From a virus: DNA of 46,559 nt. Below are positions 1 through 26,864 of this stretch, piece after piece. Each line of letters begins with the position of its first letter. The first letter of the stretch is position 1. The notes beneath the pieces are model-generated. The model saw only the letters and a list, made by a program, of their open reading frames with translations. It searched no databases and was not told where the DNA came from. Position numbers and translations under genes: made by a program. The stretch is from UHGV virus genome UHGV-0172001, one strand, 5' to 3'.

Positions 1-349
1 ATAGCGGTCATAAAACCGCCGCGAAGCAGTCGACCGATCATTCGAGTTCCACCTTTTTATTCATAAGGCGGGACACTTTCAGGATTTTGAATTTATTCAA
101 TTTTTTCCTTTCTCCAAAATCTCTCCAAAACTTTTCCCCAAAACAGGACCACGCATTTTACAGCATTTTTATACATGGGTGAGCTTACTAGGACAGAAAA
201 GTATTCCAGTTTGTTTACCCATATCGCTTTCCGAATGAGATTTTTGATGTGATTTCTTCGTGTTGAAAAACCACATAATGTGGTATTAGAATTAGCTATC
301 AAGATTCACTTTGAATCCGTTTTGAATCCCATTGAACTCAGGAGTGACT

Positions 350-553
350 ATGAAGCGTAAAAGTGTGGCTTTGTTACAAGCCATTGGCTCGGTTATAGCC
401 CTGAGCCCGACGGTCGTTTCAGCAAATGGTATGCCAGCGAATCCAGTTTCCGCTTTGCGTCAGGATGCTGCGGCTATCAGAGGCGATTTCCAAAAAGCAA
501 TGGTATCCGTTAACGTTGAAAAGCTGAACAATGCCAGATCAAAAAGAAAGTGA
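350..553 (+). CDS. Small secreted protein, unknown function
   Basis: ATG at 350 after SD CAGGAGTGA; N-terminus MKRKSVALLQAIGSVIALSPTVVSA looks like a Sec signal peptide. Confidence 0.35.
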   Translation: MKRKSVALLQAIGSVIALSPTVVSANGMPANPVSALRQDAAAIRGDFQKAMVSVNVEKLNNARSKRK

Positions 554-998
554 GAACACCAAACTCACTTGTGAAGAACAAAAGGATAATGAACTGGTTT
601 CTCGAGTAATCGAAAATCCAGAGGTCTTAAACAGGGTTTTGGATAGTCCGCAGGTGCGGGCTATTGTTTGCCAGCATTTTCAGGGGCCTGTTCCGCCACC
701 TTCAATGCTTAAAAAGTATGATCAACTGGTGCCTGGGCTTGCAAATCGACTTGTTGAGTTGACCGAAAAAGAGCAGGCTCATCGCCATAAAACAGTGGCT
801 GATAGCATTGATATTGCCAGAGATGGTCAAACAAAGGCTTTTTGGTTGGCAATATTGATCATCTTAGCTGCCACTGTCTTTGGCGTCATGGGGGAGACAG
901 TTCTTGCCGGAACTCTCGTTTCAATAGATCTTGTTGCATTGGTTACGGCATTTATTGTTGGAAAACATTATTCTAAGCAGGAACCTGATCAAGATTAG
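531..998 (+). CDS. Membrane protein, unknown function (possibly DUF2335-like)
   Basis: 155-aa ORF with C-terminal hydrophobic helices (AFWLAILIILAATVFGV, LAGTLVSIDLVALVTAFIVG); followed by a hairpin terminator. Confidence 0.4.
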   Translation: MPDQKESENTKLTCEEQKDNELVSRVIENPEVLNRVLDSPQVRAIVCQHFQGPVPPPSMLKKYDQLVPGLANRLVELTEKEQAHRHKTVADSIDIARDGQTKAFWLAILIILAATVFGVMGETVLAGTLVSIDLVALVTAFIVGKHYSKQEPDQD

Positions 999-1004
999 TC
1001 TCCG

Positions 1005-1029
1005 AACCCCGGTTGATGCCGGGGTTTTT
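1005..1029. terminator. Rho-independent terminator-like hairpin, probably bidirectional, between the left-end cargo genes and int
   Basis: AACCCCGG-ttgatg-CCGGGGTT followed by a T run. Confidence 0.55.
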
Positions 1030-1074
1030 ACACTAGCAAAGCAATATCAACATTTTTCAGCTGTATTTATTTCG

Positions 1075-2193
1075 TCAAACAACCAATTTAACCCATTCCT
1101 GACCACGAGTATCGTTATAACGATCGGTGGTTGCCTGGACTTTATGTCCCAGTAATGTTTTTGTATCAATACCCTGCGCGCGGTACAGTCGTTCTGACAG
1201 GGAGCGTTGTTCATGAAATGTTGGCGGAGTTTTTCCTGCTGGTGGAGTTATCCCAGCCAGATCCCGTGCTTTGGCAAAGTAGTCGCTCAGGTTGTCTTTA
1301 CTCATCGGCTTTGGTTGTTTCTGGTGCCGACTATGGATTAGATATGGACTTAATATTCTGTCTCGGCACCCATCAATAACTTCTTTTAACGTTATCCCAA
1401 TGGCATCACAGCGTAGTGTAAGCGGTAACGCCAGACGCATTCCGGTTTTTCCCTGGGTGATATGCAAGTGTTCGTTCCACACATCTGAAAAACGCATGTG
1501 GCAAATGTCATCACGGCGCTGACCAGTAACAATCGCAAGAAGCATTGCGTTACGGATAAAGTGTTTTTCAGGCGTTGCGTTGTAAATTTTTTGCCAGTCT
1601 TCCAGGGTGAGCCTGGCTCTAGTTACTTTAGGGATCGGTTTACGGGTAGCCTCCGGAGGATTCCATCCAGGAGGAACTTCCCCTGCATGCTGTGCTTCTT
1701 TATAAATATCAACCCATAATCCACGATTTACTCTCGCTGTGCTGACCATGTCTTTATCCAGCCACTCATCCAGTATTAATGCAAAGTCTCTTACTTCCAG
1801 TTCTTTCAATGGGTAGTTTCCCAGACGGGAAACCAGGTATGCAGCCATTCGGGCTTTTTCTTTGTGAGTTGTAGCTGCAATATCTCCATTTTTCAGTCGC
1901 GTGTCCTGTATTTTCAGATATCGATCAACCCATGCCTTTAATCTGATACCCCGACGTTTTGTTGCTGACGGGCTTTCATCAATTTTGCGCATGAAATATT
2001 CAGCTTCTGCTGCTGCTATTCGCTGATTGGCTGTGGAAGCAATTTTTTCTGCTTTACCTTTATCTGTTCCGAGTCCGTGAAATTTTCCAGTCACAGGGTT
2101 TTTATACTGGTAGTAAACCCTGCCAGTTCTGCGATCAAACTTTTCGTAAAGACCGGCTACGTCAGTGCTGTTTTTTCGTGGCCTCGGTGACAT
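1075..2193 (-). CDS. int: Lambda-family tyrosine integrase
   Basis: 372 aa; C-terminus HEQRSLSERLYRAQGIDTKTLLGHKVQATTDRYNDTRGQEWVKLVV parallels the lambda Int catalytic C-terminus (H-x-x-R ... LLGH ... Y); start overlaps the xis 3' end as in lambda. Confidence 0.95.
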   Translation of the reverse strand: MSPRPRKNSTDVAGLYEKFDRRTGRVYYQYKNPVTGKFHGLGTDKGKAEKIASTANQRIAAAEAEYFMRKIDESPSATKRRGIRLKAWVDRYLKIQDTRLKNGDIAATTHKEKARMAAYLVSRLGNYPLKELEVRDFALILDEWLDKDMVSTARVNRGLWVDIYKEAQHAGEVPPGWNPPEATRKPIPKVTRARLTLEDWQKIYNATPEKHFIRNAMLLAIVTGQRRDDICHMRFSDVWNEHLHITQGKTGMRLALPLTLRCDAIGITLKEVIDGCRDRILSPYLIHSRHQKQPKPMSKDNLSDYFAKARDLAGITPPAGKTPPTFHEQRSLSERLYRAQGIDTKTLLGHKVQATTDRYNDTRGQEWVKLVV

Positions 2194-2431
2194 GAGTTAA
2201 AATCTCCTTCAGTGCATCATCATCGCCAGTATGAATTTCCGGCGCAATTCCCGTTTCACTTGGTCCAACAAATACTGCCCGGCGATCTATCAGCCAACGC
2301 CCACGAATTTTTTGTGGTCTCGGAACGATGTATCCAAGTTTTCCGTATTTCACCAAGGTAGTGTTTGTTATTGGGAGGCTGAACCGTTTAGGTTTCCACT
2401 CGTCGAGCGTTATCAGGTACTGTTCGCTCAT
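2162..2431 (-). CDS. xis: Excisionase (Xis-like)
   Basis: YLITLDEW...KPKRFSLPITNTTLVKYGKLGYIVPRPQKIRGRWLIDRRAVF resembles lambda Xis; sits immediately upstream of and overlapping int; ATG at 2431 with GGAG upstream (GTG at 2440 is an alternative start). Confidence 0.75.
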   Translation of the reverse strand: MSEQYLITLDEWKPKRFSLPITNTTLVKYGKLGYIVPRPQKIRGRWLIDRRAVFVGPSETGIAPEIHTGDDDALKEILTHVTEATKKQH

Positions 2432-2492
2432 GGCTATCACTCCGGAACGCGCCAGTTGCAGAATACCAACGACAACTGGCGACGGTTGAACA

Positions 2493-4949
2493 TTAAAAAT
2501 CAGCCTGACTCGGGATCAGTTTTTGCCAGATAGCTGAAACGTATTTTGCCTGGTAACGGGCGTCATCAAGTGCATTATGGCGCTCACCTTCGAATGGAAT
2601 AGCCGTTCTGGCATCGAAGTCTATGGCTTTCCCCAGCTCAACGATTGTGCGTACATCGCGATCGTTGTAGTAGCTCCACGGGCAGGGGATCCCCTGCCGT
2701 TCGTATGAACGGCGTAAAATCACGTTGTTGAAGTTGGCTTCCTTCCCCCAGATCTGAACAAAAAATTCACCGGAGTTTTCGTCGATAAATTCCCGCAATT
2801 GCAGCAGTGCATCATCTAACGGGATTTCATCGGTCATAATGGCAGATTGCGCTTCGCGTGATTGTTTACACCAGTACTTTATTGCGCCCCGGTCGATGAC
2901 TCCGCCAGCAGTTTCCAGATCGATGGTCTTGCTAAATTCCGGCCCCATATCTCCGGTTTGCGGATCGTAAAATATTGCACCTATTGAGATAATCGGGGCA
3001 TCGGGACTTGTGCCCATAGTTTTAAGGACGATCATCAAGTGGTGCCACACCCTGCTGGTGGATGTGCTTTCATGATGACCGTTCACCTTAACTGAGTGAT
3101 TTGTCGCCTCGCCAGTTTTATTATCGCTATCGTGATGCTGATTGCTGCCAGGGTTCTCCTTGTGTGGATGTTCAGCGTCTTCCATTTCCTTCGGATCATT
3201 TTCCTGAACTTCAACCTGATTCTCTTCATCGAATGTTTCCTGGTATGTTGCGTCGCCCATCACCGCGCCACAATCAGGGCAGTTGCCGCCACCGCTCTGA
3301 CCGCAGGCGGTGCAGACTTTTTCCAGTTCCTGTTGCGCTACTGGCTCGGATTGTTTCGTTTCTGGCTCGTTTTGTTGCGCATTTCGGCTGTTTTGTTCCG
3401 CTTTCTGGTCGTTCTGTTCCGATTCTTGCTGGTTCTGGTTTACAGAATCGCGGGTTTCAATCCCCTTCACCCATTTCGGATCATTCGGGTCGCTAATCCC
3501 TGCAACAAATTCTCCGCGAGAGGCCGCAAGCAACTTATTGGCGTCAGGCTGGCTGATATTGGATGCCTGCATAATTTTGTTTACTTCGTCAGCGGTAACT
3601 TTTACCTGATTAGCCGGATCTATCTGTGCCTGAGTATCCAGCGATTGCGTGTCCTGGCGATGTTCAGTTGTATCCGGCTCCATTGTTTCAGCCGTTGCCT
3701 GTTCATCTGCCATTGCGTCAGACGGTTGTGATTTTTCCTCATTATTTTTTTCTTCTTCTGTTTCGCGTTTAGCAGCCAGTTCGCGGTTAACTTCTTCCAG
3801 GATATCTTTTTCCGGTGTATGTCGTGCAGCAGCGAGAGTTTCCTCGGTAGGGTTCTCGTGATCAGTCTCCGTTAAATAGGCGTTGATATACCCCTGAAGG
3901 CGTCCCGGGTAATGATAAAACTCAGGGTGTGCGCTCCGGATAAGTGCAAAAATAGCGGCGCGGGAGTAATCCAGGATACCCGGGATTGCGCGAAGTGCTG
4001 CGGACCATTCTTTGAACGGACTTTCTTTCTTCCGGACGACTTCTTTTGCGCGACGATAAACGCTGCCCGGAATTTCATAAATATTAAAATCCATCGGAAG
4101 TGTGGCCGCTGCTATCTCCACATCCAGCGTATCGAAGGTGTGTACTAAATTCGGATTGCGATCGGTTTTGTTCCCTCCACCGGCATTAGCACCGGAAGCC
4201 GTGCGGGTGATGCGTGAAACACGATTTCCTCTCATCCACTCTTTTGTCAGCAGACCGCGATCGGTGTAGTCAGCGTCCAGATATGCTTCGAAAAAAGCAG
4301 TCATTAGCCCCAGGCCTGAATTGCCAGGATTAGGGAAAACTTTGTCAGTATCACGCACCAGTTTGTGGAGATCGCGAATTTCCAGTGGATCGAGCAGACT
4401 GGTTTTATGCGAAATAGCGAGGGCAGTAACAGCCGGTAGTTCTTCAGCCCGTGCAATGTGTAATGCCTGGAGTTCGTCGCGTGAAACGTGCGTTACCGGT
4501 TTTTCGCTGCCGCGTTGAGCAAGCCAGCGAATGGGCAGTTCCTGACCGGAAACCGGCAGGAGCATGTTCTCCTCAATCTCAGCCATGTCTTCGCCGTTGA
4601 CGTTGGTATTGTCAGTGCTGGCTGGTTTATCCTGAACAGAGGGCGAGGGCGCGATAAGTACCATTGTGATACCATCTTCCCCGCCTTTTTCGTATCGGTT
4701 GCAGAATTTGGTATCAAACACGCCTTCCGGAGGAAGGTCATTCACAACGGGTAAATGGACGCGAACAGGTTTTTTAAAATCCTCTTCGTCAAATCCAGCA
4801 TCGTCCATTGCGACAACACCGCGTGATATTGCAACCGATAATTTTTTTGCTGTGCGCCAGTAAAAACCGCCTTTAATCCCAAGGCGTTTTCTGACTTTGT
4901 CATTTTTTGCTTCGTAATATAGTGCAATTTCTTCTTTATCAGCGCTCAT
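2493..4949 (-). CDS. Large prophage exonuclease: N-terminal region resembling Rac RecE (exodeoxyribonuclease VIII) non-catalytic part, acidic low-complexity centre with a CxxC...CxxC knuckle, C-terminal DnaQ-like DEDDh 3'-5' exonuclease domain
   Basis: 818 aa; C-terminal motifs [10 protein letters not shown] (Exo I, DxE) and [13 protein letters not shown] (Exo III, H-x4-D); [16 protein letters not shown] zinc-ribbon-like; position between xis and the immunity region. Confidence 0.7.
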
Positions 4950-5026
4950 TGATAAACCTCGTAACTATTTTTAGTGTGAGCAAATCCCTGCCATTTCTGA
5001 CATATAAAAATGAAATCGGATATTAA

Positions 5027-5230
5027 TTACGGTGCTGTTTTAAGTCCTGCCGGGACTTCGTTATTATCCATGCGAATAACTTTATCGACCGGATAACAGT
5101 TACCGGGAATTTTCTGTTCATCTGCGGCAGCCATGCATTCTTCCATTGAGTCACGTATATCAACAATAAGATCAAGTGGTTCGCCTGTATTAAGAAAAAC
5201 TGTCAGAACGAGTGCGTATGCTGTATTCAT
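5027..5230 (-). CDS. Hypothetical early-left-operon protein
   Basis: 67-aa ORF from an internal ATG with AGGA upstream; 4-nt overlap with the upstream ORF suggests translational coupling. Confidence 0.4.
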   Translation of the reverse strand: MNTAYALVLTVFLNTGEPLDLIVDIRDSMEECMAAADEQKIPGNCYPVDKVIRMDNNEVPAGLKTAP

Positions 5231-5415
5231 TGCCAGTATCCTTTTTGCATCAGACGTAAACGGGCCAGCATTGAAACAATGCATATTTGATTTAATAACT
5301 CCCGTTCGTGTTTTCTCTTATTAATGGCATCTTCAGTAAATGCAGGGTTACTGATACTGACACCAATTTCAAAACAACCTTCAGACGTATTAACGTTTGG
5401 TAATAACGTTTCCAT
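5227..5415 (-). CDS. Hypothetical early-left-operon protein
   Basis: 62-aa ORF, ATGA overlap with the downstream ORF. Confidence 0.4.
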   Translation of the reverse strand: METLLPNVNTSEGCFEIGVSISNPAFTEDAINKRKHERELLNQICIVSMLARLRLMQKGYWQ

Positions 5416-5984
5416 TATCGCGTCCTCAACAATGAATTTTGTGATGCGGTGCCTGGTGCCTCCAGGTGACGTTAACCAGTTAACAATTAACGCCGGATAC
5501 AGGGAAACCCATAAACACCCGATACGGGGGAACTAATCGCTTTTTAACTGTTCCGCGTGCGCTGAGCCGCATTCACCGCATCACAAAATTCACTTTAAAA
5601 AGGGCGGACATCAGCCAGCAATGAAACTGATGCCGCCAAAAGGTAATCAACATGGGTTGTTGCAGCGGGGTTGTCACTTAAGCGTATGGTCAGCCTGACA
5701 ACCTGGTGCATTTTCTGGAGCAATGGAGGAAACCCCAGCCATACTTACCGCCGCGCCATTTCGCGGATTGCCACAACCGGAAGCGCACAATCGAAGAAAT
5801 CTAACGACAAGCCCTCTAAGGAAAAGACACCTCCGCCGTGCGCTTTCGCGTTATGCCCTGAGTTTTCAGGGATATATCCTTTCAGTAAACTGCCAGTGCC
5901 GGATTCTTATCCGTGTCCGGCGCACGACAACACGCTGTCACGTGTGGTCTCCATTCTCAACCAGTAACCTCAATGGAGGATAAA

Positions 5985-6194
5985 ATGCCAAACAAGCCAA
6001 TACATCCGCTTATTGAAAAACAGATTGAATGCCTGGTTAATCAACTCAGGCAATCAGGGTTATTAAAAACTCATTCAGAGCTAGGACTCACAGAATCGGC
6101 ATTCGACGATAAATTAAATAATGCGCTTTATAATGGCATCATTGATTACAATCGTGGTGCTGGTCGTCGTGGCCCTGCTGGTACAGCTTTGTAA
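5985..6194 (+). CDS. Hypothetical small protein, convergent and abutting the 6195-6833 gene
   Basis: ATG at 5985 preceded by GGAGGA; stop TAA at 6192-6194 directly abuts the stop of the minus-strand gene (TAATTA). Confidence 0.35.
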   Translation: MPNKPIHPLIEKQIECLVNQLRQSGLLKTHSELGLTESAFDDKLNNALYNGIIDYNRGAGRRGPAGTAL

Positions 6195-20284: not shown

Positions 20285-20360
<76 letters not shown>

Positions 20361-20363
20361 TAT

Positions 20364-20439
<76 letters not shown>

Positions 20440-22875: not shown

Positions 22876-23138
22876 AAAGTAAAGTCCCGGCTGCGCCAAT
22901 TATTTGATGCAGCTCCTCAGGCCTGTCCGCTGATTGATGGCATCCGGCAGTGTCTGCAGAACTGATCGCCTGTAAGAGCAGAATATTTCGCTGAAAAATG
23001 AAGGATGCGCCAGCGTCCGGAAAGCATGAAATTCTGCTGTGTGTGTCAATTTGTCTTATACATTCTGAATCTTGCCGAATCAGGATGAACTTTGAACAAC
23101 AGCCCGGGCGGCAAGGGGCATTTTTATCCGGAGGGGAT

Positions 23139-23363
23139 ATGAAGAGATTACTGGTAACCGTAAAGCCCTTTAACGGAACGATTCCATTCAGGGTTTTGCA
23201 GCGTGGACGTGTTCTGGTTAAGGATATCTTCAGTGGTAAATGCACGGAGTGTTATTCCCGGACATATGAAGTGGATGCCACGGATGAAGAAATTTCTGTT
23301 GAATGTGATCTGAACGCAAATATGGCGGGGATTGTAACGGCCACGTTGTTGCCTATTTCATGA
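23139..23363 (+). CDS. Hypothetical protein
   Basis: ATG 23139 after GGAGGGG. Confidence 0.4.
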   Translation: MKRLLVTVKPFNGTIPFRVLQRGRVLVKDIFSGKCTECYSRTYEVDATDEEISVECDLNANMAGIVTATLLPIS

Positions 23364-23403
23364 ATGACATAGAATGTCTCTGGGTACCCAAAAGGAGAAC
23401 ACT

Positions 23404-23619
23404 ATGTTTGTAGAAAATAACCTGAAGGCTGATCCTGATAATCAGGGATGGGTTCTGGGTTGGGCTGTAGTACGTGACAAACCCTGGCATCTGGTCGGCA
23501 TTTATGCAACGGAGGATGGCGCAAAGTCTAAACGCTCTGAATTGAATGGGGAGTATGAAGTTCGTTATGGTTCCCATCGTTTAGGTAGTGATGATTTTAT
23601 GTCTGTCGGACTTAGCTAA
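23404..23619 (+). CDS. Hypothetical protein
   Basis: ATG 23404 after AAAGGAG; followed by terminator 23641-23667. Confidence 0.4.
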   Translation: MFVENNLKADPDNQGWVLGWAVVRDKPWHLVGIYATEDGAKSKRSELNGEYEVRYGSHRLGSDDFMSVGLS

Positions 23620-23640
23620 CTGGCTGTGATGCCTGTTTGT

Positions 23641-23667
23641 AGCCCCGCAAATGCGGGGCTTTTTTAT
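23641..23667 (+). terminator. Rho-independent terminator
   Basis: AGCCCCGC-aaat-GCGGGGCT plus T6. Confidence 0.75.
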
Positions 23668-23675
23668 ATCTGGAG

Positions 23676-23978
23676 ATGATGATGGAAAAAACAGAAAACA
23701 AACCGGTTGTAATTGGTGCCGCTGCTGTTCCGTTTAAGTTTGAACTGTCACAACTGGTGGAAGTATGCATCAGTGATGAATGGGGTGAGGTTAAAGCTCG
23801 CGCTCAGTATGCGGGTGGCGAAAATCAGTACTTACTCCACTACAAAGCAGCTGATGGTCGCGCCACGACGGAGTGGTTTGGTGAGTCAATGCTGGAAGCA
23901 ACAGAAGATGATCGTCATCCTGGTTGTCCGGTATTTGCCGGTATGGAATTACCGAAAGGCGCGGTAGTTACTGAGTAA
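23676..23978 (+). CDS. Hypothetical protein
   Basis: 100-aa ORF; followed by a 14-bp perfect stem-loop at 23983-24021. Confidence 0.45.
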   Translation: MMMEKTENKPVVIGAAAVPFKFELSQLVEVCISDEWGEVKARAQYAGGENQYLLHYKAADGRATTEWFGESMLEATEDDRHPGCPVFAGMELPKGAVVTE

Positions 23979-24342
23979 CAGGCATTACAGCAGCCCTTCA
24001 CTCTAAGGGGCTGCTGTAATGTGAGAAATAAAAAACCGGCAGGGGAAATCCATTGAAGATTTGCCGGTGGCAAAAGAGGGCCATGTTTTTAACCTTAGTC
24101 GCAGAGTTACGGAGTGCAACTACGAATGCTGCCGGTATATGGCTGAATGGCGTTTCAATGATGTACGTCATCTTATCTGTAAATGTTAATGATAAACGCT
24201 CCCATTTGTGCGGGTCCTTTCCGGAATCTGAAACACCGAGGGTACGCGTACGCGCAAAAACGCGCTATTTATGAAAATTTTCAGGGAAAAAGCAGATCCG
24301 TTCTTCTTCTGGCTAACCTGTTGTTTAATATAATTTTCTTGA

Positions 24343-24410
24343 AAAAAAGAAAGGATCTGGCAGCGGTAATTTTTCGCTGAAAAAAGCATTTTGAGATCCT
24401 TTCTTCTTTT
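24343..24410. repeat. Inverted repeat immediately upstream of the terminase small subunit (candidate cos / terminase-recognition region)
   Basis: AAGAAAGGATCT (24347-24358) and AGATCCTTTCTT (24394-24405), perfect 12-bp arms, 35-bp spacer. Confidence 0.4.
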
Positions 24411-24427
24411 TGTGGGGGATATGTGAC

Positions 24428-24976
24428 GTGAAGGTTAACAAAAAGAAACTGGCGGAGATTTTTGAGTGCGATGTCAGAACAATCACTGGCTGGCAAAGTC
24501 AGGGGCTGAGAATTTTGTCGGGGGGAGGCAAAGGTATCGAGGCCATGTTCAATACTGCAGAAGCCATTGAGTGGTATGCGCAGCGGGAAAAAGATATCGA
24601 AAACGAAAAGCTCCGCAAGGAACTGGAAGATTTGCGTTCGGCTGCAGAATCAGATTTACAACCCGGCACCATTGACTATGAACGCTACCGGCTCACAAAA
24701 GCACAGGCTGACGCACAGGAGCTGAAAAATGCCCGCGAAGAAGGGCTGGTGCTGGAAACGGAATTGTTTACCTTCATTCTGCAACGTGTGGCTCAGGAGA
24801 TTTCGGGAATACTTGTACGTGTGCCGCTGACATTACAGCGTAAATATCCGGATATTTCACCGTCACACCTTGATGTGGTGAAAACTGAAATCGCAAAAGC
24901 CTCCAATGTTGCAGCTAAAGCCGGTGAAAACGTGGGCAGGTGGATTGATGATTTCAGACGCACAGAAGGCAGCTAA
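24428..24976 (+). CDS. Terminase small subunit (lambda Nu1-like)
   Basis: [12 protein letters not shown]...GGGKG...[29 protein letters not shown] parallels lambda Nu1; GTG 24428 preferred (TTG 24410 opens the ORF). Confidence 0.9.
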
Positions 24977-26864
24977 TGCAGCCGGTGCGATAACCACAGG
25001 GCTTTTATCTCTCAATATTCCGGTACCACTGACGACAGTTCAGTGGGCTGATCGACATTATTATCTGCCGAAAGAATCTTCATATACCCCCGGGCAATGG
25101 GAAACACTGCCGTTTCAGGTCGCCATTATGAACAGCATGGGAAATGACCGGATCCGCACTGTTAATCTGATTAAATCGGCGCGCGTTGGCTACACCAAAA
25201 TGCTGTTGGGGGTGGAGGCTTATTTTATTGAGCATAAATCCCGTAACAGTCTGCTTTTTCAGCCAACAGATTCTGCTGCAGAAGATTTCATGAAATCTCA
25301 TGTTGAGCCAACGATAAGGGATGTCCCTGCATTGCTGGAGCTGGCTCCATGGTTCGGAAGAAAGCACCGCGATAATACACTCACCCTGAAGCGTTTTTCC
25401 TCCGGCGTGGGTTTCTGGTGCCTGGGCGGTGCCGCGGCTAAAAACTACCGTGAAAAATCTGTGGATGTGGTCTGCTATGACGAACTCTCCTCGTTTGAAC
25501 CGGATGTGGAAAAAGAAGGTTCGCCGACGTTGCTTGGCGATAAACGTATCGAAGGCTCTGTATGGCCTAAATCCATACGCGGTTCAACGCCAAAAATTAA
25601 AGGCTTCTGCCAGATTGAGAAAGCCGCGAATGAATCTGCGCATTTCATGCGGTTTTATGTTCCTTGCCCTCATTGCGGGGAGACCCAGTATCTGAAGTTT
25701 GGCGATGATGCGACGCCGTTTGGCCTGAAATGGGAGAAGGGTAAACCGGAAACGGTGTATTACCTGTGTGAACACAATGGCTGTGTGATCCGCCAGTCAG
25801 AACTTGACCAGAGCGACGGACGCTGGATTTGTGACAATACCGGGATGTGGACGCAAGACGGCCTGACATTTTACAGCGCCAGTGATGAGGAGATACCGCC
25901 ACCGCGCTCAATCACGTACCACGTGTGGACGGCGTACAGTCCGTTCACCACCTGGGTACAGATTGTTTATGACTGGCTGGATGCGCTGAAGGATCCGAAC
26001 GGCGTCAAGACGTTTATTAACACCACGCTCGGAGAACCCTATGAAGAGGCCGTGGCAGAAAAGCTGAGTTTCGAGTTATTGCTGGAAAAGGTCTGTCACT
26101 ATGGCGCGCAGGTTCCCCTGCGGGTGGTTTACCTGACTGCCGGGATCGACTCCCAGAAAGATCGCTATGAAATTTATGTCTGGGGCTGGGCTCCCGGCGA
26201 AGAAGCCTTTCTGATTGACAAGCAAATTATCATGGGGCGACCGGAAGACGAGGACACCCTTAAACGTGTTGATGCGGTGATCAGGAAAAAATACCGCCAT
26301 GCTGACGGTACTGAAATTTCCATTTCCCGCGTCTGCTGGGATACCGGTGGTATCGACCAGGACATTGTGTATCAGCGTTCCAGAAAGCACGGCACTTTTT
26401 TTGTGCTTCCCATTAAAGGAGCATCGGTGTACGGCAAGCCGGTGATCACCATGCCCAAAAAGCGCAACCAGCGTGGGGTGTTTTTGTGTGAGGTGGGCTC
26501 TGATACCGTCAAGGAAATGCTGTACGCCCGTTTTGCCCTGCCGGTGGTCTCTGCCAGTGAAGCCGCCCCGTATACCTTCCGTTTTCCGGATAACCCGGAC
26601 ATTTTTTCGGAAGAAGAGGCGCGTCAGATCGTGGCGGAAGAACTGGTGGAGAAGGTGGTTAATGGCAGAGTGAAACTGCTGTGGGATAAAAAAGGGCGAC
26701 GCAACGAAGCCCTCGACTGCCTGGTATATGCCTATGCTGCCCTGCGTATTTCAGTTCAGCGATGGCAGCTGGACCTTGAGGCGCTGGCCCGGGCACGAAG
26801 AGATGAGCAGGATGAGGATGATATGAGTCTGGAAGAAATCGCGGCTGCACTGAGTGGAGGATAA
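24948..26864 (+). CDS. Terminase large subunit (lambda gpA-like)
   Basis: [80 protein letters not shown]: extensive collinear similarity to lambda A. Confidence 0.95.

Follow-up and report, generated by a model that had tools for sequence, protein, structure and literature searches.

Two inverted repeats stand out upstream of the terminase genes in the 46,559-nt virus genome UHGV-0172001 (the whole stretch analysed here, hereafter the window), raising the question of whether either of them marks the site at which this DNA is recognised and cut for packaging. A first-pass annotation of the sequence had treated both, a perfect 14-bp stem-loop and a 12-bp inverted repeat, as candidates for the packaging recognition site or for RNA processing. 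It is very probable that positions 24212-24408 form the cos site of a lambdoid prophage, belonging to the Gifsy-1 class and lying next to a Nu1-type terS, and that the hairpin at 23983-24021 is a separate element.

The genes on either side define the setting. Upstream and on the same strand are genes for RusA, a Q antiterminator, two holins and an M15 endolysin, and the downstream genes match the Pfam families Nu1, gpA, gpW and lambda portal; the region is therefore within a lambdoid prophage's late operon. The small terminase subunit, TerS (24428-24976, + strand, GTG start), belongs to the Nu1 family (Pfam Phage_Nu1, 8e-85) and has an N-terminal winged helix-turn-helix DNA-binding domain that matches solved lambda-type structures (PDB 1J9I and 6HN7). 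The large subunit, TerL (24906-26864, + strand, with the start placed at ~24948 by gene callers), carries both ATPase and nuclease domains (Pfam GpA_ATPase and GpA_nuclease). Two further features of this part of the genome were recorded. A canonical intrinsic terminator (AGCCCCGCAAATGCGGGGCTTTTTT, 23641-23667) lies inside the late operon, between the ORF at 23374-23619 and an ORF of the phrog_1935 family; in an Rfam scan of 23000-25000 (E ≤ 1), all the weak matches were driven by 23641-23660, and the terminator explains these matches to small RNAs (GcvB, OmrA-B and others), each of which is below the gathering score. In addition, tRNA-Thr(TGT) and tRNA-Gly(TCC) genes are found at 20285-20438, between the DNA methylase and holin genes, and the same pair occupies the same place in a prophage of E. 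coli KO11FL (L003).

The 12-bp inverted repeat is as first described, with arms AAGAAAGGATCT (24347-24358) and AGATCCTTTCTT (24394-24405), ending ~20 bp ahead of the TerS start codon (GTG, 24428), and the pairing can be extended to 17 nt with 94% complementarity (24342-24358 / 24394-24410). It also exceeds chance. The motif AGATCCKTTCTT, with at most one mismatch, has exactly three matches in the 46.5-kb window, at 24294 (+), 24347 (-) and 24394 (+), where 0.33 would be expected; three matches were not attained in any of 100 shuffles. The third copy of the repeat, at 24294-24305 on the + strand, corresponds to R3. Because the subsites align with the cos regions of phage 21 and lambda, the inverted repeat is identified, by its sequence, as R2 (inverted) and R1 of a lambda-type cosB, in the R3-R2-R1 layout of those two phages; comparison with the cos regions of related phages, which had been suggested as a check, shows the same layout in lambda, 21 and Gifsy-1. 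The predicted TerS binding repeats are R3 at 24294-24308 (+ strand, AGATCCGTTCTTCTT), R2 at 24344-24358 (- strand, reading AGATCCTTTCTTTTT on that strand and forming the left arm of the inverted repeat) and R1 at 24394-24408 (+ strand, AGATCCTTTCTTCTT, the right arm). Between R3 and R2 lies a candidate I1-like IHF site at 24314-24326 on the - strand (TAACCTGTTGTTT on the + strand, AAACAACAGGTTA on the - strand). AAACAACAGGTTA matches 8 of the 9 specified IHF consensus positions and has the same cos coordinates and strand as I1 of phage 21; across the window there are 34 matches to this consensus versus 45 expected, such that a consensus match alone is not above chance.

The repeats are widely kept among relatives. 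Searching IMG/VR for the I2 block together with R3 gave 78 loci; among 74 complete cos regions, R copies at +54 (+), +109/110 (-) and +153-155 (+) are retained in 70. Within the lineage of the window, diversity is 0.014 in R3, 0.007 in R2 and 0.0 in R1, versus 0.028 overall.

The remaining subsites were located by joining the right and left ends of lambda and of phage 21 and aligning each with the window. No gaps interrupt the alignment between lambda bp 13 and bp 69, and this gap-free register of the right flank and R3 sets lambda bp 1 at window position 24241. The predicted order of subsites, immediately upstream of terS, is cosQ, cosN, I2 block, R3, I1, R2 and R1, with 197 bp from cosQ to R1. 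cosQ (24212-24218, + strand) is the heptamer GGGTCCT, identical to the cosQ annotated in phage 21, and precedes the predicted cosN by 22 nt, versus 23 nt in lambda and 21. The I2-region block (24263-24282, + strand, CGCTATTTATGAAAATTTTC) is a cosN-proximal conserved block of 20 bp that is identical to lambda bp 23-42; I2 is conserved among lambda, 21 and N15 (PMC4669245). Within R3, CCGTTCTTCTTC lines up without gaps with lambda bp 58-69. Counted from the predicted cosN, the window has R3 at 54-68, the candidate I1 at 74-86, inverted R2 at 104-118, R1 at 154-168 and the terS start at 188, and the record for phage 21 gives cosN at 1-12, R3 at 50-65, I1 at 74-86, R2 at 107-122, R1 at 150-166 and the terS start at 189. 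The window has these parts of a lambda-type cos: three R repeats, with R2 inverted, within ~120 bp of terS, together with cosQ, the cosN-R3 distance and the TerS/TerL genes. The first-pass annotation had likened the position of the inverted repeat to that of cosB/cosN in lambda and proposed it as a packaging site. This holds for cosB, since the repeat is R2/R1, but not for cosN, which lies ~150 bp further upstream, at ~24241-24252; R3, cosN and cosQ had been missed.

cosN is predicted at 24241-24252 (+ strand), which would give the cohesive end GGTACGCGTACG as a 12-nt 5' overhang, with nicks at 24240/24241 (top strand) and 24252/24253 (bottom strand) as placed by the register and dyad symmetry. 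Its core, GTACGCGTAC, forms a perfect palindrome of 10 bp whose centre, 24246/24247, coincides with the position of the dyad in lambda, and a nick ~47 +/- 2 bp from R3 is the distance rule described for such sites (PMC9026076). The register was chosen because it alone fits two independent features, the distance to R3 and the centre of the palindrome, and could be off by 1-2 nt. Two other registers, one based on cosQ (24242-24253) and one with CG on both flanks (24239-24250), disagree with these two features taken together. The cohesive end matches that of lambda at 6 of 12 positions, which, like the 22-nt cosQ-cosN spacer, is a non-canonical trait of the site. According to PMC4669245 and PMC9303873 (citing Vahanian et al. 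2017), a canonical cosN has GGGC at bp 1-4, flanking CG dinucleotides on both sides and a conserved left half; judged by that description, the window departs from the canonical form in having GGTA at bp 1-4 and AG as its left flank, and retains the CG of the right flank.

From this anatomy, homology and conservation, we infer protein binding and nicking by analogy with lambda. In lambda-type systems, TerS binds R3, R2 and R1, an IHF-induced bend at I1 lets a TerS dimer dock on R3 and R2, TerL nicks cosN at a fixed distance from R3, and cosQ is needed for termination, all within a cos of ~200 bp (PMC4669245, PMC9026076). In the window, IHF would similarly bend the DNA at I1 and the winged-helix domains of a TerS dimer would dock on R3 and R2, with R1 in an accessory role. 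Docking of TerS would anchor TerL, which would introduce nicks staggered by 12 bp at cosN, ~47 bp from R3, leaving 5'-GGTACGCGTACG ends, and cosQ would serve in packaging termination. Such a reading would locate the ends of the genome and indicate which packaging specificity this prophage has, and the predicted 12-nt ends could be of use in annotation, in end mapping and in predicting which phages and satellites are able to cross-package.

The R sequence, CAGATCCKTTCTT, and the recognition helix of TerS indicate that this cos is of the Gifsy-1 specificity class and not of the lambda or 21 class. Judged by sequence, the R repeats conform to CAGATCC(G/T)TTCTT and the helix to DVRT(I/V)T(G/A)WQ(S/N)QG. 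The helix of Gifsy-1 (DVRTVTAWQSQG) is nearly the same as that of the window, and the corresponding helices are SIRTIQNWQEQG in lambda and DPRTIERWQSQG in phage 21. As R sequence and recognition helix match by class, the binding site and its reading head change together, as would be the case for a functional pair. The Salmonella phage Gifsy-1 also shares the R sequence itself (CAGATCCGTTCTTCTT, inverted AAAGAAAGGATCTG), the three-copy layout of its cosB (R3-I1-R2-R1) and the TTATGAAAATTTTCAG block. It differs in its cosN (GGGCGGCAGCGT) and its 23-nt cosQ-cosN spacer, compared with GGTACGCGTACG and 22 nt in the window, and its TerS is 78% identical overall, the C-terminal part of the window's TerS instead resembling that of phage 21. 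Comparison with L006 and L008 shows TerS to be a mosaic in which the N-terminal recognition helix is of Gifsy-1 type and the rest, the TerL-binding C terminus included, is almost the same as gp1 of phage 21. Overall, gp1 is 87% identical to the TerS of the window, and phage 21 has the same cosQ heptamer and an I1 at the coordinates of the candidate I1 in the window. However, phage 21 is unlike the window in having TCGTGTCGGTACTT-type R sites (TCGTGTCGG and so on), its own recognition helix and the canonical cosN GGGCGGCGACCT. The lambda cos (cosQ, cosN, I2, R3, I1, R2, R1) has the same architecture, orientation and spacing, and has the CCGTTCTTCTTC of R3 in common with the window, whereas its R core is CGTTTCC rather than CAGATCC (cos bp 54-56 differ) and its TerS is only 52% identical.

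Two other explanations of these sequences were weighed against a cos site in use. The R2/R1 repeat could act as RNA, as a 5'-UTR hairpin, attenuator or RNase site controlling terS, given that its arms would be able to pair in the late transcript and that it ends ~20 nt before the start codon. However, the + strand folds no better than shuffled sequences (z = -1.07), the loop is 35 nt long and the terminator scan made no call on the repeat. A third copy stands in direct orientation at the position of R3 in lambda, the layout and spacing agree with the annotated cosB of phage 21, and the sequence of the repeat varies in step with the recognition helix of TerS among lambda, 21 and Gifsy-1, making a role at the RNA level very improbable. 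The second explanation, that the cos is the relic of a defective prophage and out of use, would suit the unusual cosN core and the presence of the window inside a chromosome-sized contig (L103, 243 kb). We regard this as unlikely, given that all subsites are intact, the TerS, TerL, gpW and portal ORFs are full-length, the R sites and the right flank are strongly conserved across many genomes, and the identical TerS protein occurs in 224 blocks of the contig collection.

The unusual cosN core can be viewed alongside its relatives. The lineage of the window was represented by 24 sequences, consisting of IMG/VR and metagenome loci, two annotated relatives and the window itself, and among them at least nine cosN cores occur (GGTCTGGGGACG, GGTACGCGTACG, GGACGGCAGACG, GGGCTGGGGACG, GGTCATGGGACG, GGTACGTGTACG, GGTCGGTAGACG, GGTCATAGCACG and GGTAGCCATACG). 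The nine 12-mers share the form GG.......ACG, with a cosQ-cosN spacer of 22 nt (loci other than the window: L004, L009, L025, L034, L037, L039, L057, L061, L062, L064, L071, L079, L080, L084, L087-L095 and L098-L107). Pairwise diversity at cosN bp 3-9 is 0.42, the highest of any 7-nt stretch in 1445 aligned bases, compared with 0.031 at third-codon positions of terS and 0.003 in the right flank (bp 13-49). Positions 4 and 9 change together, being either C..G or A..T, which fits a twofold-symmetric mode of recognition. The terminase is close to invariant over the same lineage: TerS is at least 97% identical to that of the window in 16 members from the IMG/VR stage, and TerL is at least 96% identical in the 13 of these 16 with enough downstream sequence. 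The eight metagenome loci were compared as DNA, and six align gap-free to the window with 96-100% identity over -45..+1400. Even loci with an identical TerS protein carry two different cosN cores. A scan for the cosN right flank gave no matches in GTDB genome contigs and only eight in metagenomes.

Whether these patterns mean that the cohesive-end sequence evolves unusually fast in this terminase lineage, and so breaks the left-half conservation of cosN reported in the literature cited above, is rather doubtful, and we raise the idea only tentatively. Were it true, what TerL reads might be limited to a short outer half-site that is symmetric (G-N-G-T-M, bp 4 and 9 varying in concert), and the central bases of cosN might be mutational hot spots, being single-stranded in virions. 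Alternatively, these bases could be under diversifying selection, for example through incompatibility of ends between co-resident prophages or escape from satellites that bear cos. A non-canonical and hypervariable cosN served by a nearly invariant terminase could inform how TerL chooses its nick site, and this is the one item here of wider interest.

The hairpin at 23983-24021 is a different matter. Its arms, CATTACAGCAGCCC (23983-23996) and GGGCTGCTGTAATG (24008-24021), form a perfect 14-bp stem (14 nt, 100% complementary) around an 11-nt loop, with no T run following, the tail being TGAGAAATAAAAAA; arms, coordinates and missing T run all agree with the first-pass annotation. No other perfect inverted repeat in the 46.5-kb window reaches 14 nt with a loop of at most 60 nt, and the hairpin is above chance, as dinucleotide shuffles contained a mean of 0.01 such repeats and 1 of 100 shuffles had one. 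Folded as RNA it gives -29.2 kcal/mol (z = -6.2). The absence of a T run means that it does not have the form of an intrinsic (Rho-independent) terminator, a promoter and terminator scan made no call on it, and the Rfam scan of 23000-25000 (E ≤ 1) gave no match over 23983-24021 or over the R2/R1 repeat. A covariation test on 12 hairpin alleles and 16 pairs found no pair altered on both sides, and two positions are unpaired in nine of the 12 alleles. Most copies have GGGCTGCGATAATG as their 3' arm and hence a 2x2 internal loop, the perfect stem being an allele of the window's lineage. The loops differ in sequence and length (9-12 nt) and the arms are constant.

The hairpin starts 4 nt past the stop codon of the phrog_1935 ORF (23676-23978, + strand), a 100-aa accessory ORF of unknown function (PHROGs match, 1.5e-56) that is homologous to L33 of phiP27 as annotated in that phage, and the upstream Q antiterminator, holin and endolysin genes are on the same strand. 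ORFs of 57 and 42 aa lie between the hairpin and cosQ. In the window, cosN is 258 bp downstream of the hairpin, but across relatives with the same cos type this distance ranges from 112 to 1377 bp. Of 5426 complete E. coli genomes, 358 carry the hairpin, in as many as 7 copies each, and it is also present in phiP27, cdtI, phi458 and Salmonella Fels-1. It precedes not only Nu1 modules but also an HNH gene with an HK97-type cos/terminase in phiP27, DUF1441-type and ParB plus TerS modules and the Fels-1 terminase, and is absent from the cos regions of lambda, 21 and Gifsy-1. Homology with phiP27 stops at 24021 and other prophage matches begin at 23972-23982, so that the breaks fall exactly at the edges of the hairpin. 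In L039, two copies bracket a cassette, and a T run follows the stem in one related context only (L034/L084).

The variable distance to cosN and the occurrence of the hairpin ahead of other types of packaging module argue that it is neither a packaging signal nor part of cos. It is probably an mRNA 3' stem-loop and a recombination joint, going by its position. Because no pair in the 12 alleles changes on both sides, most alleles have unpaired positions, and T run and Rfam match are both absent, a selected RNA structure is no more than a suggestion, and it is the position of the hairpin that points to an RNA function. As a conserved stem-loop following phrog_1935 accessory genes in the Q-dependent late transcript, the hairpin would close the phrog_1935 cassette on its 3' side and be traversed by Q-modified polymerase, and may protect or process mRNA as a 3'-end barrier or processing stem, while also offering a short stretch of homology for the exchange of modules. 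In this it resembles the intergenic stem-loops found at the ends of phage genes, being a stable stem that comes directly behind a stop codon of a long, polycistronic late transcript. Compared with intrinsic terminators or T7-type RNase III sites, it is without a U tract, an Rfam family or covariation. T7 RNase III sites carry an internal loop, as do most hairpin alleles.

The main rival to the mRNA stem-loop reading is that the hairpin acts at the DNA level, either as a patch for homologous exchange or as the operator of a dimeric protein, and has no role in RNA. We judge this less likely but a possibility of some weight, as homology with different prophages starts and stops at the very edges of the hairpin, two copies flank a cassette in L039, the arm sequence including its CA/GA mismatch is kept across E. 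coli and Salmonella Fels-1, and covariation is missing from the 12 alleles; short homologies are also known to drive mosaicism in lambdoid phages (PMC2327257). In contrast, the constant place just past a stop codon on the transcribed strand, and the T run behind the stem in the L034/L084 context, look like a structure at the end of a transcript, and the range of loop lengths (9-12 nt) fits poorly with the fixed half-site spacing of an operator. The hairpin also sits between the lysis and terminase genes, 258 bp from cosN, which would suit an element within the packaging signal, for instance an additional site, ahead of cosQ, for terminase or termination. The hairpin lies outside the ~200-bp cos (24212-24408), a span that, from cosQ to cosB, suffices for cos function in lambda (PMC4669245). 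With its shifting distance from cosN in relatives with the same cos, its presence before HK97/HNH, DUF1441 and ParB/TerS modules and its absence from the cos regions of lambda, 21 and Gifsy-1, a part in packaging is extremely improbable. Proximity to a terminase gene does not by itself make a conspicuous perfect hairpin a packaging signal. The hairpin was also rejected as an integron attC-like or REP-like element, core-site motifs and integrase context being absent.

Related cos modules were also seen in other settings. A complete cos of the Gifsy-1 class (cosQ, canonical cosN GGGCGGCGACCT and R3-I1-R2-R1) without a following terS occurs in L023, L028, L043, L048, L051, L053, L066, L072 and L086. 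In L023, the cos is at 346-560 and is adjoined by genes at 538-6098 on the opposite strand, running toward cos. These genes encode a Nu1-like protein without the N-terminal DNA-binding part (matching only positions 36-162 of the Pfam profile), gpD-like and gpE-like capsid proteins, PerC, SSB and a D5-type primase. By their gene content and cos, loci of the L023 type look like a phage satellite (PICI-like) with a full helper-type cosB, unlike the PICIs described as being without R repeats (PMC9026076).

Exchange at cos is apparent in a comparison with L005, in which positions 3040-3395 are 98.5% identical to window positions 24022-24224, covering ~200 bp upstream of cosQ and cosQ itself. E. coli prophages of the L005 type have a different cosN (GGGCGGGAGCGT) and a DUF1441-type small terminase, with the recombination joint falling within the cosQ-cosN spacer. 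The two halves of cos, that of the right end and that of the left end, therefore move as separate modules. In the interval between hairpin and cosQ, the minus strand at 24026-24067 carries a terminator-like stem, CCGGCA...TGCCGG (24067 to 24036), followed by TTTTTTATTT (24035 to 24026). L005 has a 130-bp insertion at the same AAAAAACCGG repeat, with a 38-aa hydrophobic minus-strand ORF that ends at the second copy of the T run, and 24026-24067 may mark a small minus-strand transcript or a cassette for a toxin-like peptide.
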